Origin: an uncultured Rhodothermales bacterium
GTDB taxonomy: Bacteria > Bacteroidota > Rhodothermia > Rhodothermales > UBA10348
Assembly (NCBI GenBank): GCA_964527795.1
Contig: CAZGOS010000003.1
Location: 1-42,997, forward strand
Length of the DNA: 42,997 bases
Direction of reading: 5' to 3'
Below the pieces are notes generated by a model. The model was given only the letters and a program-made list of their open reading frames with translations. It ran no database searches and was not told the DNA's origin. Both the position numbers and the translations under genes were made by a program. Shown here piece by piece: positions 4,215-29,884 of the stretch (positions are counted from its first letter, which is position 1; each line of letters begins with the position of its first letter).

Positions 4215-5157
4215 CGTCGTGCATGAAGAGTCGATAGAATAGATTCGGTCTTCTTGCCAGACTTTTTACAAAATACACCAACGACCATTTTCGGCGACTG
4301 TCCAGCTTCTGTGTCTCTGTATTATCTAATAGCTCTATCTCGCGCTCCGTCGGCTGCTTGAGGAAATACGCTTTCAGAGCCTGAATCTCGGCGTCGGAAT
4401 AGGCTTTCCGATAGTCGTCAAGCGTTGAAAGACTATCGCTGCCAAAGAGGAATGCGTCCGCGTAGGATGGCATCGGTGTGCCATCCATACCGGTACTAAA
4501 AGTTCTGAAGATGCTTTCATTGTCGTCTCCGCCCTTATACCCGCCACGCGTGAAGTCGAACGCATCAATTTTTCTCCCCGTGGCGTCCTTCAACGTGCCT
4601 TCCAGATGACCGGACCCGGTTCCGCGTACGCCGTGACACGTCCAGCAGTCCATGAGCATGTACAGATACTTCCCCTCCGCGAAAACGATTTCCGTCACAG
4701 TAGGCTCGGCCGGGATGTGCAACGTTGGTGCAAACTCATCTTCGTCGAAATATGGCGCAAACGCCCTGACGTACGTCGCGACATCGCGCAACTCTCGCTC
4801 ACTCAACAGGTCTCGCCAGGACGGCATCATCGTGCGCGGAACTCCATTGCGGATCGTGCGCATCAGATCATCGACGGTAGGCAGATCGCCTGTAGGCGTT
4901 GACCTGAATTTGAAAACACCGGTCGAAAAATCGCTCGGTCGTGGATCCAGGGCGGCATAGCCGGGACCTTTTCCGTCCCCCTCGTCGCCATGACAGGCTG
5001 CGCACGCGCGTACGTATATATGCTCGCCTCGGCTTCGGGCCAGAGCAGCTTCTATCAAATCAGAAGCGGTGCGTTCAGACGTCCCGGCCGAAGACTGTGC
5101 GATTGCCGGACCGGCAGAGAAAAAGAGCAGGGTCAGACTGGTCAGTATGCTTCGCAT
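4198..5157 (-). CDS. Periplasmic dihaem cytochrome c
   Basis: Two CxxCH motifs (CAACH, CWTCH), each followed by a conserved F-[KR]-x-[FT]-x-x-G-x-x-G-T-P/M-MP-[SA]-[WY] type Met-ligand segment. MRSILTSLTLLFFSAGPAIAQ reads as a clean signal peptide, so I prefer the start at 5157; the longest ORF starts at 5205. It is a paralogue of the N-terminal half of the 11462-13420 protein. Confidence 0.8.
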   Translation of the reverse strand: MRSILTSLTLLFFSAGPAIAQSSAGTSERTASDLIEAALARSRGEHIYVRACAACHGDEGDGKGPGYAALDPRPSDFSTGVFKFRSTPTGDLPTVDDLMRTIRNGVPRTMMPSWRDLLSERELRDVATYVRAFAPYFDEDEFAPTLHIPAEPTVTEIVFAEGKYLYMLMDCWTCHGVRGTGSGHLEGTLKDATGRKIDAFDFTRGGYKGGDDNESIFRTFSTGMDGTPMPSYADAFLFGSDSLSTLDDYRKAYSDAEIQALKAYFLKQPTEREIELLDNTETQKLDSRRKWSLVYFVKSLARRPNLFYRLFMHDDELTH

Positions 5158-5321
5158 CAAGTCGGCTGCCCGTTCGGTGACTCTTGAGCCGGACCTTTGT
5201 CCCATATTGTGCTCACGCTATAGAATTGGTCGAGACGACTACTTTGATAATTGTGCACGATAGAACTCTGGGTAAATCCTTCGCGGGCTTGCCGCGATGT
5301 ACTTGTCGGATGATGCGCGCG

Positions 5322-5361
5322 CTGCCGGCTCGGGCAGACCGGAATCTGCGTCAGCCGGCAG
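5322..5361. promoter_or_regulatory. Interrupted 14-bp inverted repeat / stem-loop in the divergent control region
   Basis: CTGCCGGCT-cgg-GCAGA-ccggaa-TCTGC-gtc-AGCCGGCAG: 9+5 bp of perfect complementarity with a symmetric 3x3 internal loop. It lies between the two divergent cytochrome operons. Confidence 0.3.
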
Positions 5362-5432
5362 ATATCCGAAAAATACTCAGAACCCACATCAGTTTCATGG
5401 ATATTTCCGGCGGGGAAATTCGGATTCGTCAA

Positions 5433-5463
5433 GCTTCGGTCTGACGACATGGCTTCGGTCTGA
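5433..5463. repeat. 12-bp perfect direct repeat GCTTCGGTCTGA x2 (19 bp start to start)
   Basis: Copies at 5433-5444 and 5452-5463. A 6-bp inverted repeat ATTTCC-n5-GGAAAT lies just upstream at 5403-5419. Possible transcription-factor sites; function unknown. Confidence 0.3.
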
Positions 5464-5702
5464 TAATCAACGCATTAAACGAGCGCGATGAACCGGTGCT
5501 TGGGCCGGGTGCGATAGTGCATCTTTCTGCAACGCTGTTCGGTCGCCTCCTTCGGGATCATTTTCTACCTGTTCGTTATGTACAAAACTCAGGTATTCCC
5601 CCACAACATTTGTATTAAGACGGGATTACAATTCTGGGGATGAATCGACTCGAGACATGCTGGTTCACCTGCGTCGACTCCGTGCAACCTTCAGCGCCTG
5701 CC

Positions 5703-6455
5703 ATGCAAGAACATGTAAACCCCGCATCGCCAAACCAACAAATCCCTATTACGGAGAAGAAGGTGTGCACACGCTTTCGCGCAATTCCATCACGTATCTC
5801 GATCGGGATATTACTGGGCTGTACTTTCCTCGCGAGTTGCGATATCGGGCCTAAACACGAGGAGCCTGTAGCCCCTGAAACTCCCTCCCTCACGGCTCCG
5901 CTCGACGGATCCGCTGATCAGCAGAACGCTCTCTATCTGGAATGGACCGAGTCGCCTGTGGCTTCAGCATATCATGTTCAGGTATCCACTCAATCGGATT
6001 TTCTTGATCTGACCGTCGATGACCGAAATATTCTAGTTCCGATTACACCGGTAAAAGATTTGCAGGTCGATTCAACCTACCACTGGCGGGTGAGAGCTTT
6101 TAACGAAGTGGGTTTCAGCGATTGGTCGTCGGCTTGGTCGTTCACGCCTTCATCACCCGCATCGTTTCCAGCCGTTCCACAGCTCGTATATCCGCCAGAC
6201 GGGACAATTGATCTGGGAACCACCGTTGAATTCAAGTGGAGGACTACAAAAGGTTCCAGATTTTATCATATTCAGGCATCTCTGGAACGGGATTTTTTCA
6301 GCAGGGAAGCCGATATGATCGTGGCTGACACGGCACAGTCTGTTTCGGCGCTCGTATATGAGTATTGGTATTACTGGCGCGTGCGGGGACAAAATGCCGC
6401 CGGATATGGGCCCTGGTCTCCTACGTGGTTAATCGTAATCGCGGCCGGCGGATAG
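5703..6455 (+). CDS. Lipoprotein with two tandem Fn3/Ig-like repeats
   Basis: Lipobox FLASC. Two ~95-aa repeats each carry P-x-DG-...-L/F-x-W-...-Y-x-[VI]-Q-[VA]S-...-Y-[HY]-WRVR-[AG]-x-N-x-x-G-...-WS. The start is ambiguous: ATG at 5640 or 5703, or a GTG at 5763 preceded by GGAGAAGAAG that would give a compact lipoprotein signal. Confidence 0.6.
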   Translation: MQEHVNPASPNQQIPITEKKVCTRFRAIPSRISIGILLGCTFLASCDIGPKHEEPVAPETPSLTAPLDGSADQQNALYLEWTESPVASAYHVQVSTQSDFLDLTVDDRNILVPITPVKDLQVDSTYHWRVRAFNEVGFSDWSSAWSFTPSSPASFPAVPQLVYPPDGTIDLGTTVEFKWRTTKGSRFYHIQASLERDFFSREADMIVADTAQSVSALVYEYWYYWRVRGQNAAGYGPWSPTWLIVIAAGG

Positions 6456-6520
6456 ATCCGACGCCGATAAACAGGACGATCGATTCGAACAATTGGTACG
6501 CATAATCCGGTTATAGCGAC

Positions 6521-7861
6521 ATGAAATCATTTCATACAGAAAGAATCCTCTTTGGCGGATTGATATTCGGAATCAGTTTGGCCGGATGCACACTTTCACA
6601 GTCAGAAGTGGACGATACCATTCTGGACGAGCAGTTAATCCAGGTCCTCACAAAGAACGGTGAGCGTACCCTTGCCAATTTCATATTACCGGACAGCGAC
6701 GATTTTTCCTCCATCCCCCAGGATCCGGCAAATCTTCTTACTCTGGACAAAGTAGAGCTGGGTAAGCTACTGTTTCATGAAACCGCACTTGCCACAAATC
6801 CGCGGCACGAGAGCGGAAGGGGAACGTACGCATGCGCGACATGCCATCATGCAGCGGCCGGTTTCCAGGCAGGACGGAAGCAGGCCATAGCCGATGGTGG
6901 TTCCGGCTGGGGTGAGAGAGGTGAAGGACGTACACGGAATGTTGCCTACGAAGTAGAAGATCTGGATATTCAGCCTATCCGGTCTCCTACCATTCTGAAC
7001 ACTGCCTATCAACGAATCACGAAGTGGGACGGCGGTTTCGGCGCACACGGACTGAATGAAGGTACGGAGTCAAGTTGGATTCCCGGCACCGATGCCGCCA
7101 TGAATTGGTTGGGATACGACGGTCTCGAAACACAGGCCATCCGGGGATTGGTTGCCCATCGAATGGGCGATATCGAATCGAGTATCGTAGCCACTCATCC
7201 TACGTACACCGAGCTTTGGGACCGTGCATTTCCAGGTGAGCCTGTTTCGGTTGAAAAAGCGGGATTCGCCATAGCCGCGTACGAACGTACGGTTTTTGCC
7301 AATCAAGCCCCGTTCCAGCGCTGGCTAAGGGGTGAAACCAGCGCCATGTCCCCAGACGAAAAGCGAGGAGCTCTCGTCTTTTTTGGGGATACCGGTTGCG
7401 AGCGCATGTGCCACACCGGCGGCCCTCTCAGTTCAGTAAATTATTATGCTTTGGGAGTGGCGGATATGGAGGGTTCGGACGTTTACGGTGATATTCCTGA
7501 AACGCTGGGTAGAGGAGGTTTTCTTCAGGACCCGGACCAATACTTCATGTTCAAGATTCCACAACTCTACAATCTCAAGGACTCCCCCTATTACGGACAC
7601 GGCGGAATGTTCAGATCCCTTCGGGAGATCGTCGAATATTACAACGAAGCTGTTCCTGCCCGAATCCTTCCTGAAGGGCGCATCAAGAGTACGTTCAAAC
7701 CTCTCGAATTAACGGAGACACAGATTGACAATCTCGTGCTCTTTCTGACGGAATCACTCTACGACCCAAACTTAATGCGCTACGTGCCCGACTCGCTGCC
7801 TTCGGGAAACTGCACGCCGGCAAATGATCCGATTTCTAGAGTTGATCTGGGCTGCGACTGA
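6521..7861 (+). CDS. Dihaem cytochrome c peroxidase / MauG-family lipoprotein
   Basis: Lipobox SLAGC. LGKLLFHETAL...YACATCHHAAAGF is the classic first haem site (nt 6833-6847). FKIPQLYNLKDSPYYGHGGMFRSLREIVEYYN matches the CCP/MauG C-terminal signature. The second haem site reads GCERMCHTGG, which is CX3CH rather than CXXCH (nt 7397-7414). Confidence 0.8.
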   Translation: MKSFHTERILFGGLIFGISLAGCTLSQSEVDDTILDEQLIQVLTKNGERTLANFILPDSDDFSSIPQDPANLLTLDKVELGKLLFHETALATNPRHESGRGTYACATCHHAAAGFQAGRKQAIADGGSGWGERGEGRTRNVAYEVEDLDIQPIRSPTILNTAYQRITKWDGGFGAHGLNEGTESSWIPGTDAAMNWLGYDGLETQAIRGLVAHRMGDIESSIVATHPTYTELWDRAFPGEPVSVEKAGFAIAAYERTVFANQAPFQRWLRGETSAMSPDEKRGALVFFGDTGCERMCHTGGPLSSVNYYALGVADMEGSDVYGDIPETLGRGGFLQDPDQYFMFKIPQLYNLKDSPYYGHGGMFRSLREIVEYYNEAVPARILPEGRIKSTFKPLELTETQIDNLVLFLTESLYDPNLMRYVPDSLPSGNCTPANDPISRVDLGCD

Positions 7862-7968
7862 CGGGACGAAAGCATGAAGTGTTCGAAGGGAAACGTCGAT
7901 CGACTACGAGCACCGTCGAATCATCGCAGCGGATCGGTTTTGCGGTGTCCGAAACGAAATCAGACTGA

Positions 7969-7984
7969 GCCCGGCCTTCCGGGC
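7969..7984 (+). other. GC hairpin GCCCGG-CCTT-CCGGGC between the peroxidase gene and the bd-like operon
   Basis: Perfect 6-bp stem with a 4-nt loop and no following T-run, so at best a weak or partial terminator or an RNA processing element. Confidence 0.25.
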
Positions 7985-8028
7985 GACCGTTGTTCCGGTG
8001 CTCCACGGCTCTGGAGCGAGGCGAGTTG

Positions 8029-9798
8029 ATGGTAGGGCTAAATCACCGTTTCAGGCGATCACGCCTGCTGTGGTTGGCCCTTCTGGCTGCAATCGCCGTC
8101 GTCACACTTCTAGCAGTGCCGACCGAAGCATTTCCGCAGGAAGCCGTACAGGAAATACCCGCCGATCCCGAATACCGCAGGCTTCCCATGATCGGTAGCC
8201 GCGTCGGTATGTGGGTTGTAGGTCAGCTCCATCTGATGTTCGCGGCTTTCGTACTGGCAGTGCCCCTCGTCTCGCTCATCATCGAGATCGTGGGGCATAT
8301 GAAGAAGGAGAAGCGCTATGACGACCTGGCGTACGAATTCATGAAACTGATGTCGGTATCCTTTTCGCTGACGGCATCGCTGGGAGCACTACTGACGATT
8401 ATGCTGGTCGTGCTGTATCCGAGACTAACGACCTACCTCGTCTCGATCTTTAGCTGGACCTTTTTCCCGTATGCCCTTCTCTTTTTCCTCGAAGCTGTTT
8501 TTCTCTACAGTTATTACTACGGCTGGGGAAAGTTTTCGCCTCGGGTACACATCGCACTCGGAATTGGCCTCAACCTCACCGGGTTGTCCATCATGTTCAT
8601 CGCGAACGCCTGGCTGACGTTCATGAATACGCCCGGCGGCATCTCCGAGACAGGGGCGCTCGTGAACCTGTGGGATGCTATTAATAACTATACCTGGATG
8701 CCCATCAACATCCACCGAACAATTGCCAACGTTGCTTTTGGCGGTTCGATTGCGGCTGCGTACGGCGCATACAAGTATCTCGGCGCCAAAACGCCGGAGG
8801 CCCGCGCCCACTACGACTGGATGGCGTACGTAAGTATTCTCATCGCCATCATTGCCCTCATCCCTCTTCCTTTCGCCGGATATTTACTCGGGAAAGAGAT
8901 CTATGCGTTCTCCCAGTCGCTCGGAATAGCCACCATGGGAGGGACTTTCTCCTGGATCTTCATCATCCAGGGCGTCCTTGTGGGCAACCTGTTTCTGGCT
9001 GCCAACTACTACCTCTGGGTCAGCATGGACCGAATCGAAGGCGCAGAGCGGTATCGGAAATTCATCAAATACCTGCTCGCTTCGATCGCGGTCACGTACA
9101 TCGTCTGGGCGACGCCTCACTCGCTCGTTGCGACGGTTGAAGAAGCGAGGCGGATGGGTGGAGCCAACCATCCGATGCTGAACGTGCTGGGCGTGATGTC
9201 GGCTAAGAATACGGCCGTCAATGTGCTCATCCTGACGACGTTCGTGAGCTTTCTCCTTCACCGACGCAGCGACAAGGAGGCCACCGTGTCATGGGCGCGC
9301 ACCGGTAAGCGCGTCCAGCTTTGGATATTCATCGTGACGACGGTCTTCGTTGTTTTTCTGGGAGTGTACGGGTACTTCGTAGAAGCGCGCGTTCGAATCG
9401 CCTTCTCGATTCCACAGGTCCTGTCGGTCCTCCTGGCAATGATATCGGTAACGGTAATCGACATCTATCTGTTCAGAAACGCCAGGAAGCGCGGTTCGAT
9501 TCGATGGGGCGAAATGCCGGCCCGGGCGCATTACGTTCTTTTCTTTCTGGCCGTCACCTATGCCTGGACGATGGGCATCATGGGATACGTGCGCGGGGCG
9601 ATGCGGCAGCACTGGCACGTGTACGGGGTGATGGCGGATACGTCTCCGGACGCATTCACGCCTTCGATCGGATATGCGTCGGTCGTCACGTCGGTGACGG
9701 TTTTCATCTTCTTCGTCTTCATCGTATTCGTATTCTGGTTGGCGGGTCTCACCGGGCGAAAACCCTGGGAGTCTACCGAGGAGGAGTCAACGGCATGA
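8029..9798 (+). CDS. Cytochrome bd-like oxidase subunit (CydA homologue lacking the Q-loop; extended C-terminal TM region)
   Basis: CydA signatures by eye: a TM1 His (VGQLHLMFAAFVLAVPL), LFFLEAVFLYSYYYGWGK (compare E. coli FFLESTF..FGW), ANAWLTFMNTPGG (compare ANGWMQNPVG), and a TM5 His (NIHRTIANVAFGG). The segment where the quinol-binding Q-loop sits in CydA is only a few residues long (YLGAKTPEARAHYDW). Several extra TM helices follow and no cydB-like gene is present. GAGG lies 8 nt before the ATG at 8029; the longest ORF starts at a TTG at 7990. Confidence 0.75.
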   Translation: MVGLNHRFRRSRLLWLALLAAIAVVTLLAVPTEAFPQEAVQEIPADPEYRRLPMIGSRVGMWVVGQLHLMFAAFVLAVPLVSLIIEIVGHMKKEKRYDDLAYEFMKLMSVSFSLTASLGALLTIMLVVLYPRLTTYLVSIFSWTFFPYALLFFLEAVFLYSYYYGWGKFSPRVHIALGIGLNLTGLSIMFIANAWLTFMNTPGGISETGALVNLWDAINNYTWMPINIHRTIANVAFGGSIAAAYGAYKYLGAKTPEARAHYDWMAYVSILIAIIALIPLPFAGYLLGKEIYAFSQSLGIATMGGTFSWIFIIQGVLVGNLFLAANYYLWVSMDRIEGAERYRKFIKYLLASIAVTYIVWATPHSLVATVEEARRMGGANHPMLNVLGVMSAKNTAVNVLILTTFVSFLLHRRSDKEATVSWARTGKRVQLWIFIVTTVFVVFLGVYGYFVEARVRIAFSIPQVLSVLLAMISVTVIDIYLFRNARKRGSIRWGEMPARAHYVLFFLAVTYAWTMGIMGYVRGAMRQHWHVYGVMADTSPDAFTPSIGYASVVTSVTVFIFFVFIVFVFWLAGLTGRKPWESTEEESTA

Positions 9799-10652
9799 AG
9801 CTCAGCGTCAGAATTATCGTCTTCGTGACTCTTTCGATCGGATTTTACATGTATATAGGCCTGATTGTCCCGCAGACAACGATCTACCCTCCAGAGACTG
9901 CCGATCTTCGTAGTGATCTCACACCGGCAGAGCTGGCCGCAGCGGGAGAGGATATCGTCGCCGGAAAAGGCACCTGTCTGGTCTGTCATGCAATCGGAAA
10001 GCTCGAAGCCGCGCTACGCTATCCCGATCTCGGAAACATAGGTTCCGTCGCGGCATCCCGAGTCGACAGCCTCTCGGATGTGGCCTATCTCGCCCAATCG
10101 CTCTACGAGCCGGACTTATTCATCGTCGAGGGTTTCCTGCCCGGAATGCCTCCAGTCGATCGCCCCCCCATAGGTTTAACGGACGGCGAGATTCTGGCGG
10201 TAATCGCCTACATGCAGAATCTCGGCGGAGAGCCTTCGGTAACGCTGCAGACAAGGCTGCATTACCAGTCTGATTCGGTTCAGGTTGTCTTGCCGGAAGC
10301 GTCAACGTCTCAAGAAGAGATCACCAGAAGCCGAACGCCCCAACCGACGGGACCGAGAGGATCTCGCCTGTTCGTAAACTACTTCTGCACCACGTGCCAC
10401 CTGGTTGACGCTCCGAATCCAATCGATCCGGAAACGCCGCCCCTCAGAGGACCAAGCCTGTACGATGTCGGTTCCCGGCTATCCAGAGCGGCACTTTATG
10501 AGGCGATACTGGAACCGAACCTCAATCTCTCGGAGGGATACGAGGCCGATATAATGACTTCCACGCTCATTCCGAGTGGATTCTACGACGAACTGACTCC
10601 GGTTGAACTGCGCGCTCTTGTCGATTATTTGGCAACACTCACGGGTGGCTAA
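9795..10652 (+). CDS. Membrane-anchored dihaem cytochrome c
   Basis: The ATG overlaps the upstream stop (ATGA) and GAGGAGGAG lies 8-9 nt upstream. There is an N-terminal TM helix (IIVFVTLSIGFYMYIGLIV) and two CxxCH motifs (CLVCH, CTTCH). The 443-aa track ORF starting at 9321 is an out-of-frame extension through the upstream gene. Confidence 0.8.
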   Translation: MKLSVRIIVFVTLSIGFYMYIGLIVPQTTIYPPETADLRSDLTPAELAAAGEDIVAGKGTCLVCHAIGKLEAALRYPDLGNIGSVAASRVDSLSDVAYLAQSLYEPDLFIVEGFLPGMPPVDRPPIGLTDGEILAVIAYMQNLGGEPSVTLQTRLHYQSDSVQVVLPEASTSQEEITRSRTPQPTGPRGSRLFVNYFCTTCHLVDAPNPIDPETPPLRGPSLYDVGSRLSRAALYEAILEPNLNLSEGYEADIMTSTLIPSGFYDELTPVELRALVDYLATLTGG

Positions 10653-11465
10653 GTGAATCTTTTCATCATTCTCGGGATCGTTGGCGGCCTGATCGCGCTC
10701 AGATTCTTAAAGCCGAACCCTTTGTTGAGGGCTCTGGTCTGGTTGCTCGCCAGCTATCTGGGCCTTCGTTTCGCACCGGATCCACCGTTGCCGTCGACGA
10801 TCGTTTCGATGTTCATGGCCATCATCGCGCTGTGCCTGCTCGCCTATCTGACAGCAACGAAGGAGCGAATGCAGGATGCTGTGAGTCGGATCTCTGTTTT
10901 TCTTCTCGATCGGCGATTTGTCATTCCTCTGGTACTGCTGCTCATCGGGCTGCCCGTCCTGGTCGCAACACGAGTATATGTTAATGCCACGAGCGATCCT
11001 TCACCGCCGATTTCGGTCAGGACCGTGCATCCGCCTCCTCCAACTTCGATCTCCTTCAGGGATACGGAGATTGACCTCATCGCTGGGGATAATCCGTACC
11101 GTGAACTGGAAACGAGCAATCCCGAGGCATTTCAAGACCACCTCGAAAACGGACTTCGGGTCTATTACGAAAACTGTCTGCTTTGTCACGGATCCGAACT
11201 CAATGGGGACGGCCTCTTCGCCCACGGGCTGGATCCTATCCCGACAAATTTCAGAGATGCAACAACGATAGCCATACTGCAGGAGTCCTACCTTTTTTGG
11301 CGTATTGCCAAAGGCGCGCCGGGTCTTCCCGACGAGTCAACACCCTGGTCTTCGTCCATGCCGGCATGGGAGCCGTTCCTGTCCGCGGAAGAAATCTGGG
11401 ACGTCATACTCTTCCTCTACGATTACACCGGCCAGAGGCCGCGAGCCGTGGTGATCCCAAAATGA
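10653..11465 (+). CDS. Polytopic (~3-4 TM) monohaem cytochrome c
   Basis: The GTG start directly abuts the upstream TAA. Hydrophobic helices sit in the N-terminal 110 aa. The C-terminal class-I cytochrome c domain reads YYENCLLCHGSELNGDG...SSMPAWEPFLSAEEIWDVILFLYDY (CcoP/ActE-like flavour). Confidence 0.75.
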   Translation: MNLFIILGIVGGLIALRFLKPNPLLRALVWLLASYLGLRFAPDPPLPSTIVSMFMAIIALCLLAYLTATKERMQDAVSRISVFLLDRRFVIPLVLLLIGLPVLVATRVYVNATSDPSPPISVRTVHPPPPTSISFRDTEIDLIAGDNPYRELETSNPEAFQDHLENGLRVYYENCLLCHGSELNGDGLFAHGLDPIPTNFRDATTIAILQESYLFWRIAKGAPGLPDESTPWSSSMPAWEPFLSAEEIWDVILFLYDYTGQRPRAVVIPK

Positions 11466-13420
11466 GAGCGCTACTCCTGTCGATCGGTCTGGCCGCGCAC
11501 GTCTTCTCAGCAGACGCGCAGGATATCGATCTGGGTACGGACACCCAGCGCGGATCCGGCCGGCTGCTCTACGAGATAAAATGTGCGCAGTGCCACGGTG
11601 TCAAGGGAGACGGGGTGTCTCCGGGAAGTCCGTATCTCAGGCCCGGGCCCCGGGATTTCACGTCCGGGATCTACAAATTCAGGACGACGGAAAATGGAGA
11701 GATCCCTTCGGATGAGGATATCAAGCGCAGTATCCGAAACGGAATGCCGTATACGAGCATGCCGGCGTGGCCGTCGCTCAGCGACGATGACGTCACGAAC
11801 CTGATGTACTACCTGAAGACGTTCTCAGAGGACTTTATCTACTTCGGAGACGCGGTTTCCTTCGAAATTCCAGATCCCCCTGAAATCACTGCAGAGTCCC
11901 TCGCACGCGGCCGGGACGTTTACGTAGAGAATCAGTGTACCGACTGCCACGGAAACCACGGCCGAAGCAACGGAATATCGTCCCCAACGCTAAAGGACAT
12001 GTGGAATTCGCCCATCAGGGCGACAGATATGACCATGCGATGGACGTATCGAGGCGGTACGTCGCGGAAGGACATCTACAGGACGTTCACAGCCGGGATA
12101 GACGGAACTCCCATGCCTGCCTACAAGATCGAACCGCTGGAAGATCGATGGCACCTCGTGAACTACGTGGCATCACTTTCCGAGGTTGAGTCCGACTATG
12201 GCACGGTGGTCAGGGCGGTTCGGGTCCCCGACACGCCCGGCGATGCACTCTCTCCGGCGATGTTCAGGAGCGCTCCTCCCACGATGTTTCCTGTGGTGGC
12301 GCAACTCATCGAGCCCGGGCGTTCCTTTTTTCCAGCTGCTACAGCCATCGAAGTCCGGGCCGTCGTAACGGGTGAACACGTCGCCGTGATGCTCCAGTGG
12401 AATGACATGAGCGCTCAGGTTACCGGTTGGAACGATCCGAAGATCGACGTACCGCTGTGGCTGGAAGATTCGGACACAACTGAGGTCTTTTCAGATGCAG
12501 TCGCCGTGCAGTTTCCGTCGAGTACCGAATCGGGCCTGCAGAAGCCCTATTTCCTGTTCGGGGATATCAAACGGCCCACGGACATCTGGTTCGCGGATCT
12601 CTCGGAAACGGAGCCGTGGCACTACATAGGACGAGGAACCGGGTTGTTGCAGATCGGAAGCACGCCCCTTGACATGTGGTCCAGGTGGGACGACGGACAG
12701 TGGACGGTCATATTCCGCCGGGCGCGCATCGAGATGGACCACGCCGCTTTTGAAGAAGGTCGATTCGTCCCCATAGCCTTCTCCGTATGGGATGGATTCA
12801 GTCGGGAGAGAGGCAACCGGAGGGGCGTCACGTCGTGGTATAATCTGTACGTGCAGCGGGCAGACGACGGATCTCCAATTCCGAGCATGCTCATCCTGGG
12901 TCTACTGACGCTGATGGCCGGTGTCGTCGCTGCGATCCGTCTTCAGTGGAAATTTCTGGGTGACGATTCACGCGGCAACGTATTGAGAGAGAACGAATAC
13001 CTGTTGCGCAAATGTCCAATTAGCCGGCCTCTGAAAAGAATAATCCGTCGCGAGGGCCTGACTATCGGTATCAAGGACTATCGAAAGCTGAGAGAAACGC
13101 AGCCCGACACATATAATTTCTCACCTGATGAGCTGATCAAAATCAGCGACTCATACCTCCGCGCGGGCAACGTCGATGCAGCCCTCGCTTTTCTGCACCT
13201 TAACCTCGAAACACACCCACACGATGTCCCGGCGCTGGATCACGTCGGACATGCCTACATGCAGGCCGGGAAACCGGACCAGGCCACCGCTTTTTATGAG
13301 AAATCAGCCGCGCTGAACCCGGAAAGATCGATGGGTAGGCTTATTCTGGAAGCGCGCAGACGTGGAGATCGGAACAGCAAACGTATAGTGATTTCCCCTA
13401 TACATTACCGGGCAGTATAG
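11462..13420 (+). CDS. Dihaem cytochrome c + EB_dh/DOMON-type (ethylbenzene dehydrogenase gamma-like) domain + TM helix + TPR tail
   Basis: The ATG overlaps the upstream stop (ATGA) and is followed by the signal peptide MRALLLSIGLAAHVFSADAQ. Haem motifs are CAQCH and CTDCH. The middle region (EVRAVVTGEHVAVMLQWND..., AVAVQFPS..., KPYFLFGD..., DIWFADLS, GQWTVIFRRA, FSVWDGFSRERGNRRGVTSWYNLYV) reads as an EB_dh-type domain. A single TM follows (MLILGLLTLMAGVVAAI), then a TPR-like tail (YLRAGNVDAALAFLHLNLETHPHD...YMQAGKPDQATAFYEKSAALNP). The track ORF start at 11183 is an artefactual extension. Confidence 0.7.
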   Translation: MRALLLSIGLAAHVFSADAQDIDLGTDTQRGSGRLLYEIKCAQCHGVKGDGVSPGSPYLRPGPRDFTSGIYKFRTTENGEIPSDEDIKRSIRNGMPYTSMPAWPSLSDDDVTNLMYYLKTFSEDFIYFGDAVSFEIPDPPEITAESLARGRDVYVENQCTDCHGNHGRSNGISSPTLKDMWNSPIRATDMTMRWTYRGGTSRKDIYRTFTAGIDGTPMPAYKIEPLEDRWHLVNYVASLSEVESDYGTVVRAVRVPDTPGDALSPAMFRSAPPTMFPVVAQLIEPGRSFFPAATAIEVRAVVTGEHVAVMLQWNDMSAQVTGWNDPKIDVPLWLEDSDTTEVFSDAVAVQFPSSTESGLQKPYFLFGDIKRPTDIWFADLSETEPWHYIGRGTGLLQIGSTPLDMWSRWDDGQWTVIFRRARIEMDHAAFEEGRFVPIAFSVWDGFSRERGNRRGVTSWYNLYVQRADDGSPIPSMLILGLLTLMAGVVAAIRLQWKFLGDDSRGNVLRENEYLLRKCPISRPLKRIIRREGLTIGIKDYRKLRETQPDTYNFSPDELIKISDSYLRAGNVDAALAFLHLNLETHPHDVPALDHVGHAYMQAGKPDQATAFYEKSAALNPERSMGRLILEARRRGDRNSKRIVISPIHYRAV

Positions 13421-13474
13421 TCGTACAATTTCAACCGCTTATTTAATTCCTGTAAGAATGAAGGGAGAAAGAAC

Positions 13475-13873
13475 ATGGCTTTAGAATGGAAGGATGAATT
13501 CGACTGTGGTGTGGCAGAGGTAAACGAACAACACCAACAGCTGGTTGGGCTACTCAATTCTTTGGAGCAAATGATTGCTGATGGGATTGAGAGTGGTCCT
13601 AAGGTGGACAGTCTGCTCAGCTCGCTGGCGTCTGATGCAGTGGCGCATTTCTCGTTTGAGGAAGGGTGCATGGCGCGCTACAATTGTCCGGCAGCCCGGT
13701 TAAACAAGGAAGCACACGCCCAATTTTTGGAGATCTTCGGGGATTTCCAGCGCGAAATTGAGGAAAACGGATCGAATGCACCGCTGCTCAAGAGACTACA
13801 CGAGACGGCTGAGGGTTGGATTGTTACACATATACTCAATGTGGATGTCCAGTTGAAACCGTGTGTTCACTGA
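13475..13873 (+). CDS. Bacteriohemerythrin-like protein
   Basis: WKDEFDCGVAEVNEQHQQLVGLLNSL is the hallmark N-terminus. HF..EE, H..F and H....D ligand segments are present. AAGGGAG lies ~9 nt upstream of the ATG, 54 nt after the oxidase operon. Confidence 0.8.
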   Translation: MALEWKDEFDCGVAEVNEQHQQLVGLLNSLEQMIADGIESGPKVDSLLSSLASDAVAHFSFEEGCMARYNCPAARLNKEAHAQFLEIFGDFQREIEENGSNAPLLKRLHETAEGWIVTHILNVDVQLKPCVH

Positions 13874-13964
13874 TCTGAAGTCAACGCAGTCTGAAAAACA
13901 GCGGCGGAACACGTTGCATAAGAGATGCTGACTGACGAGCTGCGAAGGTGCGAATAATCGAAGT

Positions 13965-14249
13965 TCAGGAGGTGAGCGAGTATTCCGTGAATGAAACGCA
14001 ATAGATAACGATCTTCGAGACCTGCCGGGCCCACGAACGCCGGGTGCGGCTGAATGGGCCTTTCACAGAACCGGATTCCCGAGTTTCATGCTCGACCTGC
14101 GGCGTGCTTCGCCTGACGATGCAAACTCCTCGTGGCTGACCCAACCGATACTTTTCAGAAGCATCAGGGCCATGGCATTGAGTTACGCTTTTAATCGTAC
14201 CGTTCTTTCTGACGACTACGATGAGGTGATTTTCTTCGATCAGACCCAT
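13965..14249 (-). CDS. Orphan ORF, no recognisable family (possibly non-coding or a remnant)
   Basis: Known only as an open frame in a gene-poor patch; I recognise no motif. Confidence 0.15.
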   Translation of the reverse strand: MGLIEENHLIVVVRKNGTIKSVTQCHGPDASEKYRLGQPRGVCIVRRSTPQVEHETRESGSVKGPFSRTRRSWARQVSKIVIYCVSFTEYSLTS

Positions 14250-14460
14250 CCTTCCGTACTACTTCATTGAGTAGACTGATGAATCGTGATCTCATTTAAG
14301 GAGACACGCTCGTAACGAGTTTTTGGTCGTGCAAACGAGTGACTTTTTTTACCCACATATCGCCGCTCTGAAAGAACGGTACGATCATGCAGATAAGTGT
14401 TCTCTTTCGTACTCTGGCAGTGAATGGGAGCCTTACGTCAAACTTTCCGATGTGACGAAA

Positions 14461-15596: not shown

Positions 15597-16667
15597 TTAT
15601 CGAATCCTCGGCTTCCACCGTCCTTCCGAATAGACGCTACGAATGTCCACGAGGACTTCGCGGTCGAACATGAGCTGTTCACCGCCGGCGACATCGACTG
15701 ATTCAACGGGAGCAATTCTCAGGTCATAATTCTCCCATCCCATGTAGTCGACGAGAATGCGCTGGAATTCCAGGTCAACAATGCCGTCGATTGTGCCGTC
15801 GTAGAAACCACGCACCGTCCACATTTCCTGGAATTCACGCGCCAGTGCTTCGTCAACCGGAATCATGTTTTCCCGCTGCGACTGCGTAAAGTAAAGATTG
15901 TTGAGTTTGTAGAGGCGCTCAAGCTCTGCAATCGGAGTCTCGTGGTCATACACCGAGATGTCGATGAAATTGTCCATACCGTCATAACCGGCGCCCTCCC
16001 GTACGACAAGGAGCGCTGCGCTCTGCTCACCGCGCTGGTCTCCACCGGCCTTTCCACCCGCCACCAGCGCCGCCACCAGTCGATCGGCGAGTGAGCCTTC
16101 CGTGGACTGGAAGGCATCGGCCATGGCTTCTACGGTCTCTTTCGAAACCAGAATGTTTCCCTGCGCTGTAAATCCATACCCGGTCAGCACGGTGCCGACG
16201 TTGCCCTGCTCCGGTCCCATCGCCGCTACGCTGGAATCCCTTTGCCCTATTCGTGCACCCTGCCAGGCAAACGCACCGCTTCCCGTCCATGTGGCTGCGT
16301 TCCCACGGGCATCCACCATGCCAACCTGCCTGTCTTCTCGGCCCTCATCTCCCCGAAGCACGATACGAAGCGCCTCCTCGGCGGTCGCTCCGTCTTCCAT
16401 GAGTGCGAGCCCCTTGATACCGTAGTCGAGCTCCACGAAGCTCTGCGTGGCAACGGCTCCAACGCCTGCTCGGGCCCATGGCACGACCGGACGAAGGTTC
16501 GGAAATTTCGATTGCACGACAACCCCCAGATCTCCGTTCTCCGGATCGAATGCGACCATCGAGAACGTGGACACGAGCGGATCCCTGGACGATTGGTTCA
16601 GAAAAAACAGGGCGGCGGACAGAGCGGCAACTGAGACAAGCGCACGTGCGATAATGGAGCGTTTCAT
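15597..16667 (-). CDS. DUF1028-family (Ntn-hydrolase-like) secreted protein with a C-terminal peptidoglycan-binding-like domain
   Basis: STFSMVAFDPENGDLGVVVQSKFPNLRPVVPWARAGVGAVATQS is the DUF1028 N-terminal signature, with Thr/Ser after the signal peptide. The C-terminal FQEMWTVRGFYDGTIDGIVDLEFQRILVDYMGWENYDLR matches the PG-binding-like tail common in this family. The start at MKRSII (16667) is preferred over 16733. Confidence 0.75.
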   Translation of the reverse strand: MKRSIIARALVSVAALSAALFFLNQSSRDPLVSTFSMVAFDPENGDLGVVVQSKFPNLRPVVPWARAGVGAVATQSFVELDYGIKGLALMEDGATAEEALRIVLRGDEGREDRQVGMVDARGNAATWTGSGAFAWQGARIGQRDSSVAAMGPEQGNVGTVLTGYGFTAQGNILVSKETVEAMADAFQSTEGSLADRLVAALVAGGKAGGDQRGEQSAALLVVREGAGYDGMDNFIDISVYDHETPIAELERLYKLNNLYFTQSQRENMIPVDEALAREFQEMWTVRGFYDGTIDGIVDLEFQRILVDYMGWENYDLRIAPVESVDVAGGEQLMFDREVLVDIRSVYSEGRWKPRIR

Positions 16668-16792
16668 ACGGCAGAGATGATGAGTCTTGATTTCACAAGG
16701 ATAGAGAATGTGCACACTCGGAAGGATTTTCACAGGGTCCCGCGCAACGATTTCCGAAAACGATTACTTAGAACGATTGCTTAAACCACTGC

Positions 16793-18841
16793 TTAGAACA
16801 AAATGTTGACACCGCCTTGAAACGTGCGACCGGATCCCGGATCGAAATAGCGACGACTTCTCGAATTGATCGTGACCGAGGTCACATATTTCTCGTTGAA
16901 CAGATTGTTCACCTGCACGAACGGACGGATCATCGCCGATCCCGCGGATATGCCTGAATGCGATAGATTTACATCAGCCAGCGAATAAGCATCCGTTCTC
17001 GCCGTATTTGCATCGTCCACGAAATAAGAATCCACGAATAACATATTGAACTGCAGCACCATATTTCCCGGTGTCATGACTGCCGAGAAAGTGAGCTGGG
17101 TCTCCGGAACACCCGGCAGACGGTTTCCGTCAAGCGGCTCTTCCCTGAACTCAAATCTACCCCTCGTGAGCGCAGTACCCAGTTCTACATCGGGCGCGGG
17201 AACCCAGGAAAAAGAAGCTTCGATGCCGACGTGAATGTTTTCGCCCCCGTTTCGAAAAAAGGTTCGTTCGCCACCCTCTTCGGTCTGAAAGGCGACGAGA
17301 CGATCCTGAACGATCAAACGATAGACGGCTATGTCGGCAGCAAATCCCGTGTCATTCTTTCTGGTTCGAATTCCCGCTTCCACTCCCACGGTTCTCTGGG
17401 CATCCAGATCCGGATTGAATCCCCCCGTCAGATCAGGGCGATTCACCAGTTCCGTCGTTGTCGGTGTTTCGAAGGCAGTGCCCACATCGGCATAGACGGT
17501 TGCGCCCGGCAACTGATACGAAAATCCAAGAACCGGACTGAACGCCTGAAACGTGCGTTTACCGGACTGATCACCATTAAGAAGAAGATCGTCTTCCATT
17601 TTGAATCGAACGTAGTCAAACCTCGCCCCCGCGACGAACCGAACTCGATTGGAAACGGAATACGAGAATACGGAGCGAACCGAGCCGTTCAGCACACGCT
17701 CATTCTGATCCAGTTTTAGATCGGTCCCCCGCCCCCCTTCCACCGTATTCCAGTTCTTGCGCTTATCCGATTGAAATCGAATGTCAGCACCGACGGCCAG
17801 TGTCAGCCGAGACGCCGGCGTCTGCAATGATACATCCGCGCCACCCGCTTGTCGGTCAAGGTCAATGAAGGCAAAAGGAAGGGGATTTCGGAGAGCCCGC
17901 CTGATCCAGTGCGCCGACACGGTCACCAGGCCAAAACCCGTCTGCTGAAGAAAATCTGTTCCCAGTTGAACCTGCCGGCTCTCCTTGCCGGCTTTCTGCC
18001 TCTTGAAGAACGCGCTGGCGAGCGTGGGATCCGCCTCATATTCGACCCTGGTCAGCGAGCCCGGATGGTCTGCGCGTTGATCAGCCGCCGCACCCCTGAA
18101 ATTCAGAACTGAAGAAGATCCCACGTTAAAACGAGCGAGAAGCGCTCCCCGGGTGAATCGTCCTGAACTATGATCGCGGTATCCGTCGCGTGATATGGAC
18201 GATGCATATACTTTGATCCGGTGCTTGTCCAACCGGAGATTAGTCTCACCGACCGCCTGCATGAGCCCATCCGATCCTGCCGAGAGACGTACGCGCGTGG
18301 CATAGTCGTCTCGATTTCTACTCGTCGACAGAAAAAGGGCTCCGCCACTCCCGTTTCCCCAGAATACCGATACCGGACCGCGAATGAGTTCGGCCGACGT
18401 AATCATGCCCGGATCGACGATGTCGGCGATAGACTGTCCATCGGGCAGCGTGAGAGGGATACCGTCGAGAACGATCTGAACACCACGAACACCGAACGGT
18501 GCGCGGCTGCCCATTCCTCTTACTATGAGCCGCTCACCAACGGCAAAATGGTTGCGATCACTCAAGAACAGGCCCGGAATTCCGCGCAGGGTCTGCTCGA
18601 GTGATGTGCCGGGCGCCGTATCGACGATCTGCTGCGGTCGCCGTATCGAGACAAGAGAGAATGGTGATGTTGCTTCCGTACCGAGTCCCCGCGTGGCGGA
18701 TACCCGAACTTCCGGAAGCGCAACGTGCACGGAATCCTGTGCAAATACAGGCAACGGCGTTGCCGGCGCCAGACCGGATACGATCAAAGCGACCGAAAAG
18801 GCGCGATAATATGCACGGGGCAGTTTCGTTCGGAAACACAT
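16793..18841 (-). CDS. TonB-dependent outer-membrane receptor
   Basis: Signal peptide then a plug domain (PEVRVSATRG...SLEQTLRGIPGLFLSDRNHFAVGERLIVRGMGS...GVQIVLDGIPLTLPDGQ), a long beta-barrel and a terminal ...GGVNILF. The start is uncertain (18841 or 18865); the longest ORF (18928) would overlap the rodA 3' end. Confidence 0.85.
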   Translation of the reverse strand: MCFRTKLPRAYYRAFSVALIVSGLAPATPLPVFAQDSVHVALPEVRVSATRGLGTEATSPFSLVSIRRPQQIVDTAPGTSLEQTLRGIPGLFLSDRNHFAVGERLIVRGMGSRAPFGVRGVQIVLDGIPLTLPDGQSIADIVDPGMITSAELIRGPVSVFWGNGSGGALFLSTSRNRDDYATRVRLSAGSDGLMQAVGETNLRLDKHRIKVYASSISRDGYRDHSSGRFTRGALLARFNVGSSSVLNFRGAAADQRADHPGSLTRVEYEADPTLASAFFKRQKAGKESRQVQLGTDFLQQTGFGLVTVSAHWIRRALRNPLPFAFIDLDRQAGGADVSLQTPASRLTLAVGADIRFQSDKRKNWNTVEGGRGTDLKLDQNERVLNGSVRSVFSYSVSNRVRFVAGARFDYVRFKMEDDLLLNGDQSGKRTFQAFSPVLGFSYQLPGATVYADVGTAFETPTTTELVNRPDLTGGFNPDLDAQRTVGVEAGIRTRKNDTGFAADIAVYRLIVQDRLVAFQTEEGGERTFFRNGGENIHVGIEASFSWVPAPDVELGTALTRGRFEFREEPLDGNRLPGVPETQLTFSAVMTPGNMVLQFNMLFVDSYFVDDANTARTDAYSLADVNLSHSGISAGSAMIRPFVQVNNLFNEKYVTSVTINSRSRRYFDPGSGRTFQGGVNILF

Positions 18842-18902
18842 TCGACACCATATTCGGAAATGCATTCGCAGTTGAACCTTCGATTCGATATACGAGTGGA
18901 AC

Positions 18903-20162
18903 TCAGTACCCATAAATCGAGAAGTCATCTCTCCGCATATATAGAGAAATCACGATAGCCAGTAGCGCCGTATTAGCCAGTAGCGCTGAACCGCCGTACG
19001 AAAGAAACGGAAGCGGAATACCGATCACGGGAAGAATGGCGGTCGCCATCCCGATGTTAATGAAGATGTGTATTAGATAGATGCCCACGGCGCCCGCGGC
19101 CACCATCACAGCGAACGGGTGTTTGATTCTGCTACCGAGTTGAATGAGCCGGAGCAGCAGTCCCAGAAACAGCGCCAGCACGACCAACGAGCCGAGAAAA
19201 CCGAACTCTTCTCCGATAACGCTGAATACGAAGTCCGTCGACTGCTCCGAAACGAAAACACCTTGCGTTTGCGTACCCTGCATGAATCCTTTTCCAGCCC
19301 ATCCACCGGATCCGATGGCGGCCATGGATTGAACCTGCTGAAATCCTTCGTTTAATCGGAATTGCTCCGATCCGGGATCCGTGAAGGAAAGGATGCGAGC
19401 CACCTGATGCGGTTGTAGCAACTGTGTGAGCGCGAGCGAGGCAACGAGCACGGTACCGACCGAAAACAAGCCGCTTATCCATGTCAGATTGCGGTCACGG
19501 GTACGGAAGTACATGATCAGCGTAAAACCTATCGCAAATAACCAGGCGCCCGGTTCATAAACGATGGAAAGGTATCCGGCTACGGCAGGAGCGATCATGA
19601 TAAGCAGAAGATCCAGTTCGAGGCCACTCCAGAACAGCGCAATCGGAATAAATCCGATAAATACCAGGGCCGTGCCCATGTCGTTTTGCAACACGATCAG
19701 AAACGCGGGAATCAGGATCATGCCCACCACCAGGAGGGCGAAGCGAATGCCCATTCTCTTCGGGCGACGAATACCAACGACCTGCGCCACGCCCAGGACC
19801 ATTCCAACCTTGGCGAGTTCAGACACCTGAAGCTGCATGGATCCGATCATGATCCACGATTTTGCTCCGTTGATTTCCCTGCCAAACAGCAGAGCTCCCA
19901 GCAGCAGAAGAACTGTGAACACATAGATCGGAAAAGCCGTCTGCTGGTAAAAACGAACAGGCAAAAGCATTGCAATAATCAAAGCGATTCCGGAGACGGC
20001 AAACCAGAGAAGCTGCCTGTCGAAATTCCTTCTCACGCTGGCCAACAGGAATTCGGAAGCCGGGCTATTCGTGGCTGAAAAAATGGCCGTCAGTCCGACA
20101 ATTACGAGCGAGCACCAAAAAAATAGGCTCAAAAAATCGAGATTGTTATACCAGGTGCGCAC
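18903..20162 (-). CDS. rodA: SEDS-family peptidoglycan glycosyltransferase RodA
   Basis: FtsW/RodA/SpoVE signatures are present (GSGGWAGKGFMQGTQTQ...SEQSTDFVFSVIGEEFGFLGS...PVIGIPLPFLSYGGSALLAN). It lies directly downstream of the PBP2 gene. Confidence 0.9.
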   Translation of the reverse strand: MRTWYNNLDFLSLFFWCSLVIVGLTAIFSATNSPASEFLLASVRRNFDRQLLWFAVSGIALIIAMLLPVRFYQQTAFPIYVFTVLLLLGALLFGREINGAKSWIMIGSMQLQVSELAKVGMVLGVAQVVGIRRPKRMGIRFALLVVGMILIPAFLIVLQNDMGTALVFIGFIPIALFWSGLELDLLLIMIAPAVAGYLSIVYEPGAWLFAIGFTLIMYFRTRDRNLTWISGLFSVGTVLVASLALTQLLQPHQVARILSFTDPGSEQFRLNEGFQQVQSMAAIGSGGWAGKGFMQGTQTQGVFVSEQSTDFVFSVIGEEFGFLGSLVVLALFLGLLLRLIQLGSRIKHPFAVMVAAGAVGIYLIHIFINIGMATAILPVIGIPLPFLSYGGSALLANTALLAIVISLYMRRDDFSIYGY

Positions 20163-29817: not shown

Positions 29818-29870
29818 TTGTGTGTTTGCATTGTAGAAATAAAATCGGTCGTTTTTCAGCCCACGGGGCA

Positions 29871-29884
29871 TATTGTTAACAATA
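29871..29884. promoter_or_regulatory. Perfect 14-bp palindrome TATTGTTAACAATA upstream of ric
   Basis: Centred ~60 nt upstream of the preferred ric start. A TACAAT -10-like hexamer lies between it and the ATG on the coding strand. Candidate operator for an NO/nitrosative-stress regulator; the regulator is not in the window. Confidence 0.35.

Follow-up and report, generated by a model that had tools for sequence, protein, structure and literature searches.

A dihaem cytochrome c/EB_dh protein in a bd-like operon

We analysed a 43-kb stretch of DNA from an uncultured Rhodothermales bacterium (42,997 nucleotides, positions 1 to 42,997 of contig CAZGOS010000003.1, assembly GCA_964527795.1; hereafter the window), with emphasis on one of its genes, which codes for a 652-amino-acid (aa) protein that we call the target. 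The target gene is the last of four genes that are joined by ATGA or abutting junctions and are translationally coupled, the three others coding for a bd-like CydA homologue and for two cytochromes c, one dihaem and one monohaem (Table 1). By its architecture and gene order the target can be matched to the alternative NxrC (alt_NxrC), or EbdC-like, subunit of the OR-N2 class of bd-like modules. Its EB_dh domain appears to carry non-ligating residues at both positions that hold haem b in EbdC and NXR-C.

An alignment of homologues served as the query in a scan of species-representative genomes and yielded at least 578 related loci, the best 80 of which were analysed; a single protein as the query gave no loci. 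In these 80 loci, genes for the CydA-like protein, the dihaem cytochrome c and the monohaem cytochrome c lie upstream of the target orthologue in 74, 77 and 79 cases, respectively. The loci come from at least eight phylum-level groups, most of them from Rhodothermales, Calditrichia, Opitutales and Acidobacteriota, and others from Fibrobacteria, Latescibacterota, Woeseiaceae and Nannocystaceae. The closest relatives are found in Rhodothermales and Calditrichia (53-77% identity), and the CydA-like protein itself is 59-77% identical in the 74 loci.

Table 1. Features of the window, with the operon of the target first
Feature	Position	Strand	Basis and remarks
Target ORF (open reading frame)	11462..13420	+	ATG start; ATGA overlap with the stop of the upstream gene
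Sec-type signal peptide, aa 1-20	11462..11521	+	AxA site SADA|QD; translation, N-terminus aligned with homologues
Dihaem cytochrome c module, Kustc0457 type	11537..12193	+	Pfam, PDB profile, Foldseek, invariant columns
EB_dh/DOMON-like beta-sandwich, aa 245-470	12194..12871	+	Pfam PF09459, Foldseek, residue alignments, column counts
Single C-terminal transmembrane anchor, aa 472-497	12875..12952	+	Sole hydrophobic peak >1.6; conserved in homologues
Predicted cytoplasmic tail, aa 498-652	12953..13420	+	Basic juxtamembrane linker, about three TPR-like helix pairs, stop
bd-like CydA homologue, OR-N2 type	7990..9798	+	Start codon uncertain; ~12-14 transmembrane helices; lacks the Q-loop half
Membrane-anchored dihaem cytochrome c	9795..10652	+	ATG 9795, ATGA overlap with the CydA stop; CxxCH at aa 61 and 198
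Monohaem cytochrome c, three N-terminal transmembrane helices	10653..11465	+	Pfam, transmembrane and CxxCH count; in 79/80 loci
Cyc2-like fused monohaem cytochrome-porin, 359 aa	2619..3698	-	Signal peptide, CSQCH, 16-strand barrel, C-terminal Phe
Small periplasmic monohaem cytochrome c	3708..4214	-	Pfam; beside the Cyc2-like gene in 46/80 genomes
Soluble dihaem cytochrome c	4198..5205	-	Beside the Cyc2-like gene in 45/80 genomes
Usp-PCP_red protein	21..1280	+	Pfam; tblastn match from base 3; possibly cut by the window start
Small PCP_red protein	1393..1866	+	Pfam
CarboxypepD_reg-domain protein	1897..2604	-	Pfam; homologue in 37/80 loci, also in L082, L085 and L087
fn3-domain protein	5640..6455	+	Pfam; in the stretch directly upstream of the bd-like gene
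CCP_MauG-family cytochrome c peroxidase	6521..7861	+	Pfam; one CxxCH in a simple motif scan
Hemerythrin-domain protein	13475..13873	+	Pfam; 55 nt downstream of the target

Domains and topology of the target

Pfam, structural comparison and modelling show the target to be an exported protein with two CxxCH motifs in a Kustc0457-like module, a beta-sandwich of the EbdC/NxrC fold and one C-terminal membrane helix. Its start Met aligns with that of its homologues and opens the signal peptide MRALLLSIGLAAHVFSADA, with cleavage before QD; export is needed for c-type haem attachment. The two haem-c motifs, CAQCH (C41..H45) and CTDCH (C159..H163), belong to the N-terminal module, which Pfam Cytochrom_C matched in two stretches (73.8 bits). 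In the PDB, the profile of this module matched Kustc0457 (6h5l_B, E 7.8e-65), and Foldseek aligned aa ~30-240 with the same chain (TM-score on the target, 0.87). The distal ligands of the two c-haems are probably Met95 or Met100, both of which are invariant, and Met218.

The middle region scored 52.4 bits with the Pfam EB_dh profile PF09459, above the gathering score of 33.3, and its structural matches in Foldseek were EbdC (2ivf_C, TM-score 0.76, E 4e-15) and Kuenenia NXR-C (7b04_C, TM-score 0.63, E 1e-12). An AlphaFold2 model built with 77 close homologues had a mean predicted local distance difference test (pLDDT) score of 85.7 and a transmembrane helix spanning aa 472-499. Lys and Arg are unevenly distributed around this helix, with one in the preceding 17 residues and nine in the following 33. 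As the c-haems are obligatorily periplasmic, this distribution predicts an N-out/C-in topology, that is, a periplasmic body and a cytoplasmic tail.

A preliminary description of this DNA, made from the letters, had proposed the order signal peptide, CAQCH, CTDCH, EB_dh, transmembrane helix and TPR for the target. That order was borne out by Pfam, the model and Foldseek, and the blocks on which the EB_dh assignment had been based (LQWND, AVQFP, KPYFLFGD, WTVIFRR and FSVWDG..RGVTSWY) are conserved blocks of the family alignment. The assignment itself agrees with the PF09459 score and the EbdC/NXR-C fold, and the proposed topology with hydrophobicity, Lys/Arg bias and the model. The description had further taken the domain for an extra redox or ligand-binding module; a haem-b redox role is not a safe assumption, as set out below.

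Replacement of the haem b ligands in the EB_dh domain

In EbdC, we take the ligands of haem b to be Met108 and Lys201. In NXR-C they are Met155 and Lys305, as in EBDH (PMC8387239). The corresponding columns were identified with HMMER by aligning both PDB sequences to the family profile and to the window domain, with concordant results. The Met column falls on Phe366 of the target, within the motif P-[FY]-x3-[M/F]-G-D, and the Lys column on Arg454, within W-x-G-x3-E-x-G-x-[K/R]; the beta-sandwich and both motifs are shared with EbdC and NXR-C, the ligands are not. Among the 77 close homologues used for the model, Phe366 is present in 73 and Arg454 in all 77. In a wider alignment of 81 genome orthologues and six extra homologues from other contigs, this Phe/Arg (F/R) state was the commonest among the genome orthologues (~60/81).

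When 1.84 billion cluster representatives were searched exhaustively with the EB_dh domain as the sole query, 766 relatives were found. Among the 109 that were aligned, the more distant members have Met/Lys, His/His, Met/His, Met/Cys or Met/Met pairs at the columns of residues 366 and 454. Since distant homologues carry the classic pairs at the same columns, the alignments indicate that these are real ligand positions and that both are replaced in the clade of the target by residues unable to ligate iron, Phe and Arg. Other pairs occur in homologues linked to OR-N2 modules elsewhere. Two tandem dihaem-c/EB_dh paralogues, both Met/Lys, follow a single OR-N2 module in locus L082 (4532..7724), and the homologues in L083 and L085 have His/His and Met/Cys, respectively. 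A Met/Arg homologue was found in L084, a short contig with no bd-like gene among the called neighbours. The axial ligation of the EB_dh-type subunit is thus unusually variable across OR-N2 partners.

Taken at the level of sequence, haem b has probably been either lost or re-ligated in the clade of the target. We lean towards loss, which seems to us somewhat the better supported outcome. Re-ligation would mean that the domain still holds a haem, either haem b or a modified tetrapyrrole, by means of Met316 or other non-canonical ligands. It would then form a sixth redox centre or a site for small ligands (O2, NO or H2O2), in which the iron is open or weakly ligated and Arg454 occupies the distal pocket. 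Met316 lies in the motif W-[HN]-D-M, is conserved in 74 of the 77 homologues and accompanies the F366/R454 state, the column being Pro or Arg in the distant homologues examined. The motifs that line the pocket (WDG..ERGN.RG and PYF..GD) are strongly conserved, and products of recurrent neighbours (radical SAM/SPASM, PCP_red and Mrp/NUBPL proteins, see below) could make or insert a special cofactor. Acidobacterial proteins of the clade nevertheless have Leu, Val or Pro in this column, and Met316 was rejected as a universal replacement ligand. The column of His314 has Asn in the target, and column counts over the 77 homologues revealed no other invariant His, Met, Lys or Cys in the domain; Phe and Arg themselves are no substitute. 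We therefore regard re-ligation as possible, though on the unlikely side.

No NarG/NxrA-type molybdoenzyme gene near the module

The gamma-subunit models gave scores far below their cut-offs. The target obtained 67.6 bits with TIGR03477 (type II DMSO-reductase gamma; cut-off, 169.85), which together with Phe366 and Arg454 speaks against a haem-b module, and 30.6 bits with NF042980 (EbdC; cut-off, 400). EbdC and NXR-C work with alpha and beta partners, whereas no molybdenum-bisPGD (Mo-bisPGD) alpha subunit or iron-sulfur (FeS) beta subunit was found for the target in the window. No molybdopterin protein was detected among the ORFs of at least 600 aa in the 43 kb, in line with the preliminary description, and no NarG/NxrA-type gene lies within 10 kb of the module in the 80 relatives.

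In seven of these 80 loci (L056, L062, L065, L069, L074, L078 and L080, of Acidobacteriota/Holophagales type), an ActB-like fused molybdopterin-like/FeS protein of 1039-1329 aa is encoded directly upstream of the bd-like gene. In L069 (2156..6087), which was examined in detail, a gene for an ActA-like multihaem cytochrome precedes it, and no NrfD-like ActC gene was seen between the ActB-like and bd-like genes. The arrangement may represent a hybrid of alternative complex III and a bd-like complex. To our knowledge, ActB of alternative complex III has no Mo cofactor.

These data bear on the idea that the target is a true NXR-type gamma subunit or anchor, docking a periplasmic molybdopterin enzyme encoded elsewhere in the genome and passing its electrons to the bd-like complex. 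The EB_dh fold and Pfam membership agree with it, the ActB-like genes might be taken as traces of such a partner, and a role of this kind has been hypothesised for the homologous module of nitrite oxidisers and anammox bacteria (Nitrospira, Nitrospina and Kuenenia). The missing molybdoenzyme genes in the window and around the relatives, the low TIGR03477 score and the nature of ActB argue against it. So does the absence of the haem-b ligands, given that haem b relays the electrons of the beta subunit in EbdC and NXR-C. The clade moreover spans Rhodothermales, Calditrichia, Opitutales and other groups. We know of no nitrite oxidisers among the Rhodothermales, Calditrichia and Opitutales relatives, and a docking function of this type appears very improbable.

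The bd-like complex

Pfam Cyt_bd_oxida_I matched only the N-terminal half of the CydA-like protein (profile positions 2-248 of 418). Residues H81, Y161, E168, Y175, Y177, H187 and H242 agree with the pattern given for OR-N2, a class with an EbdC-like subunit, by Murali et al. 2021 (bioRxiv 10.1101/2021.01.16.426971, supplement, Table S6). The H19 equivalent and the proton-channel Glu are kept; the haem b595 ligand (E445 equivalent) is Ser in OR-N2 according to the same table.

The dihaem cytochrome c gene that follows has a canonical ribosome-binding site, GAGGAGGAG, upstream of its ATG at 9795. A start at TTG 9321 was dismissed. It would create a 478-nt two-frame overlap with the bd-like gene, and tblastn seemingly matched both frames; across the 74 loci, however, the median length over which the alternative frame stays open ahead of the CydA stop is just 37 nt, and the window has the canonical ribosome-binding site and the ATGA start at 9795. 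The dihaem-c frame happens to be open for 474 nt upstream of the true start, within the bd-like gene (9321..9798), which gives rise to a spurious 443-aa ORF.

Genes of aa3-type oxidases frequently accompany the module. COX1 is found near it in 31 of the 80 loci, immediately upstream on the same strand and mostly with COX3 and COX4 (Rhodothermales-type loci, for example L001 1418..6484). A COX2-like gene is present in 22 loci. In L001 its end is separated from the bd-like gene by 3 nt, and Pfam found in its product a cupredoxin domain only and no cytochrome c match. The module might on this account not be a terminal oxidase at all and might be a cytochrome c hub for the adjacent aa3 oxidase, or a cytochrome c:quinone oxidoreductase acting in reverse, a role that has been suggested in connection with reverse electron transport in nitrite oxidisers. 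The Ser in place of the haem b595 ligand would fit such a role, and a quinone-reductase idea was raised by Lücker et al. 2013 (PMC3578206). The quinol-binding Q-loop is missing, however, the H19 equivalent and the proton-channel Glu are retained, and the module is kept in the window, where no COX genes were found. We consider a non-oxidase function unlikely.

A Cyc2-like cassette in the divergent operon

The operon divergent from the module encodes a fused cytochrome-porin and two cytochromes c. The fused protein had no Pfam or NCBIfam match, and its 285 homologues were all without names; C43, C46 and H47 are invariant in 60 of them. Its AlphaFold2 model (pLDDT 87) has 16 strands, and the top Foldseek matches were OprP and OprO, the templates also reported for the iron oxidase Cyc2 (PMC8406198). 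It thus shares with Cyc2 (Mariprofundus Cyc2PV-1, Acidithiobacillus Cyc2 and Leptospirillum Cyt572) a signal peptide, a single N-terminal CxxCH, an OprP/OprO-like 16-strand barrel and periplasmic cytochrome c partners. The Cyc2 sequence signature comprises AxPxFAR[Q/K][T/Y] 5 aa before CxxCH, PxL 4 aa after it and a length of at least 365 aa (PMC8406198, Keffer 2021). The window protein differs in having a degenerate AEPYMALRT at a spacing of 3, no PxL and, with 359 aa, a length below the 365-aa filter. It is therefore Cyc2 by architecture and not by sequence signature, for which reason we call it Cyc2-like, and Fe(II) oxidation is a putative function.

The soluble dihaem cytochrome c of this operon is a paralogue of the N-terminal half of the target (41% identity over 193 aa, BLASTP E 1e-45). 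The Cyc2-like family is present in at least 470 species genomes, and adjacency was counted in the best 80 of them. An OR-N2 module lies within 10 kb of the Cyc2-like gene in 13 of these 80, which include Fibrobacteria and Gamma-, Delta- and Betaproteobacteria-type metagenome-assembled genomes (MAGs) among others, and L087 is an additional case. The closest Cyc2-like relatives (~60% identity) include KSB1-type MAGs, and Cyc2 "cluster 3" homologues have been reported in MAGs of KSB1, Calditrichota and Gemmatimonadota (PMC9769843). The recurrence of the cassette next to OR-N2 in several phyla suggests an electron route from the outer membrane to the oxidase. The link to the outer membrane would be facultative, because most F/R loci lack a Cyc2-like gene and some cassettes stand apart from any OR-N2 module.

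A cassette of the latter kind, in L086, lies near a gene (16232..19009) for a 925-aa MtrC/MtrF-like multihaem cytochrome with a type IX secretion (T9SS) Por_Secre_tail and near genes for two sigma-54 response regulators. This gene set hints at extracellular electron transfer in an organism of the FCB group.

A lineage-specific TPR-like tail

The helix of the target is followed by a conserved, basic juxtamembrane linker, RKCPISRPLKR, and by TPR-like repeats that fall just short of the Pfam thresholds: TPR_2 scored 26.7 bits at aa 591-621 (cut-off, 27), the hits with TPR_2, TPR_19 and TPR_9 lay at aa 564-629, and all single-repeat TPR models were just under gathering. The AlphaFold2 model has paired helices at aa 521-641, with a pLDDT of ~75-95 over aa 520-640. 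Foldseek matched the tail to three-repeat (CTPR3-type) proteins (E 6e-5 to 1e-3, TM-score ~0.6-0.8).

Most family members stop a few residues past the transmembrane helix. The long tail was found only in the target and in P0002, P0003/P0269 and P0004, which are 70-83% identical to it and come from JGI, NCBI and ENA assemblies. The ratio of nonsynonymous to synonymous substitution rates (dN/dS), calculated against L081, the contig that encodes P0004, was 0.17-0.23 for the tail and 0.11-0.12 for the periplasmic domains, with dS saturated. The comparisons indicate that the tail is real, under purifying selection and a lineage-specific add-on.

The small number of tailed sequences might have pointed to an error of assembly or gene calling, such as a frameshift that fused a downstream TPR gene to the target. 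A homologue search with the tail only (aa 499-652) also returned nothing; it missed even the known relatives and is uninformative on the origin of the tail. The same architecture at 70-83% identity in four other JGI, NCBI and ENA assemblies, the continuous reading frame, the low dN/dS and the confident model effectively refute an artefact. The preliminary description had seen in the tail a coupling of assembly or signalling across the membrane. The predicted topology allows for this, but any such coupling would be an accessory of one lineage and not general to the complex, because the tail is restricted to the target and a few close relatives.

The gene downstream of the orthologue differs between tailed loci, coding for a hemerythrin in the window and a radical SAM/SPASM enzyme in L081. 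In P0089, the transmembrane helix is followed by a C-terminal DoxX-type membrane domain (PF07681), at the place where the target has its TPR tail.

Comparison with known systems

The fused architecture and the operon are not new; knowledge of them dates from 2010-2013 and their classification from 2021. A cluster conserved among Kuenenia, Nitrospira and Nitrospina, described by Lücker et al. 2013 (PMC3578206), comprises an alternative NxrC, mono- and dihaem cytochromes c and a bd-like oxidase of 14 transmembrane helices without a Q-loop. In N. moscoviensis, alt_nxrC_2 codes for a 66.8-kDa dihaem protein with a signal peptide and one transmembrane helix, and it is clustered with bd-like_3 and two cytochromes c (Mundinger 2019, PMC6606698). 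The preliminary description had proposed that the EB_dh domain was recruited to the bd-like complex. Gene coupling and synteny support its membership, but by architecture and gene order the target corresponds to the published alt_NxrC/OR-N2 subunit, and the domain is not a new recruitment.

With alt_NxrC (NITMOv2_3640 of Nitrospira moscoviensis, and the proteins of Nitrospina gracilis and the Kuenenia nxr cluster), the target shares the signal peptide, the c-haem motifs, the EB_dh domain, the C-terminal transmembrane helix and a gene cluster with a CydA of the bd-like type with 14 transmembrane helices and one dihaem and one monohaem cytochrome c. It differs in its TPR tail and in lacking nxrAB nearby, and its relatives are not known nitrite oxidisers. 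The comparison is one of architecture and gene order and not of ligands, the Phe/Arg columns being known for the clade of the target.

Unlike EbdC (2IVF C) and Kuenenia NXR-C (7B04 C), the EB_dh part of the target shares its chain with a dihaem cytochrome c and with a membrane anchor. Its N-terminal 220 aa are 39% identical to Kustc0457 (6H5L B) and superimpose on it at 2.0 Å over 212 columns. Kustc0457 stands alone, is soluble and binds the octahaem HAO-like Kustc0458, whereas the module of the target continues into EB_dh and is tethered to the membrane.

The TO_1 complex of 'Ca. Manganitrophus' likewise combines a bd-like complex with a periplasmic EB_dh-type subunit ('cytochrome b') in an organism that has a fused cytochrome-porin, and a route from Cyc2 to TO_1 has been proposed (PMC9040806), which is the same route as that hypothesised here. 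The differences are a physical adjacency of cassette and module, seen in the window and 13 of the 80 Cyc2-like-bearing genomes, and the probable absence of haem b from the periplasmic 'cytochrome b' of the target. In the literature searched we found no structure of a bd-like/NXR complex, and no report of the loss of the Met/Lys pair in a large clade mainly outside known nitrite oxidisers, of a TPR-tailed variant or of a recurrent linkage between OR-N2 and a Cyc2-like cassette.

Proposed function

The explanation that we favour is that the target is the fourth subunit of an OR-N2-type bd-like complex, with the electron path and domain roles described here; we put its probability as a whole at about 70%. 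Electrons from periplasmic cytochromes would enter through five c-haems, two in the target and three in its sister subunits, and would move on to the haems of the bd-like subunit, most likely for the reduction of O2. In this organism the donors would probably be the two cytochromes, monohaem and dihaem, that the divergent operon encodes, fed in turn by the outer-membrane Cyc2-like cytochrome-porin. The EB_dh domain of the F/R clade would most likely be a haem-free docking or scaffold element on the periplasmic face of the complex and, less likely, a domain that holds haem with unconventional ligation. The tail of about three TPRs would be a lineage-specific platform for protein interactions in assembly, maturation or regulation, outside the core mechanism.

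Several points weigh against this explanation. The OR-N family has been called 'yet uncharacterized' (PMC10839748), and because its complexes are biochemically uncharacterised, the reduction of O2 and the direction in which electrons move are both presumed. The loss of haem b is likewise deduced from alignment, and Met316, given its conservation, could replace the lost ligand. The neighbouring aa3 oxidase genes also allow a reading in which the module serves another oxidase. A Cyc2-like gene is absent from most loci of the F/R clade, and around some Cyc2-like cassettes there is no OR-N2 module within ~9 kb. We identified no partner of the tail, and no conserved cytoplasmic neighbour accounts for it.

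A more ambitious version of the scheme is a complete electron-uptake chain acting on an extracellular Fe(II)- or Mn(II)-like donor, from the Cyc2-like porin through the soluble mono- and dihaem cytochromes c and the dihaem-c/EB_dh subunit to the OR-N2 oxidase and O2, in which EB_dh has turned into a haem-free dock and the TPR tail tethers maturation or regulatory factors. We offer it as speculation that is doubtful as a whole. If it held, the dihaem donor would be a paralogue of the dihaem module of its own acceptor, and the radical SAM/SPASM, PCP_red, Usp and Mrp products would be possible tethered factors.

In Nitrospira, Nitrospina and Manganitrophus, OR-N bd-like complexes are presumed to act as terminal oxidases; such complexes are spread over dozens of phyla and are uncharacterised. 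A large clade of 'haem b subunits' without haem-b ligands would mean that the electron path through these complexes needs to be redrawn, and would flag as misleading thousands of annotations that read 'DMSO reductase family type II enzyme heme b subunit'. The linkage to Cyc2-like cassettes and to aa3 or alternative complex III-like genes provides hypotheses on the source of electrons in organisms that do not oxidise nitrite, and the TPR-tailed variant offers a handle for pull-downs of cytoplasmic partners.

Other genes of the window and of related loci

The Usp-PCP_red and PCP_red clusters recur in 73 and 71 of the 80 loci. A radical SAM/SPASM enzyme, sometimes fused to PCP_red, and a Mrp/NUBPL-type ATPase also accompany OR-N2 modules in the majority of loci (for example L001 11692..18513, and in L082, L085 and L087). 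Together with the CarboxypepD_reg protein, these genes look like a dedicated maturation or cofactor set, possibly for a tetrapyrrole. An apparent 1004-aa fusion of the target orthologue to a radical SAM protein in L002 was discarded as an artefact of masked N runs.

The fn3 and CCP_MauG genes had no tblastn counterpart in the 80 loci. A scan of 5100..14400 for promoters and terminators gave counts not above those of shuffled sequence. The hemerythrin gene downstream of the target had no match in the 80 loci. A second hemerythrin gene, of the ScdA/RIC type (repair of iron centres), is located at 29071..29871 on the minus strand and is not conserved with the module. Both hemerythrin genes are compatible with a theme of O2 or NO stress.

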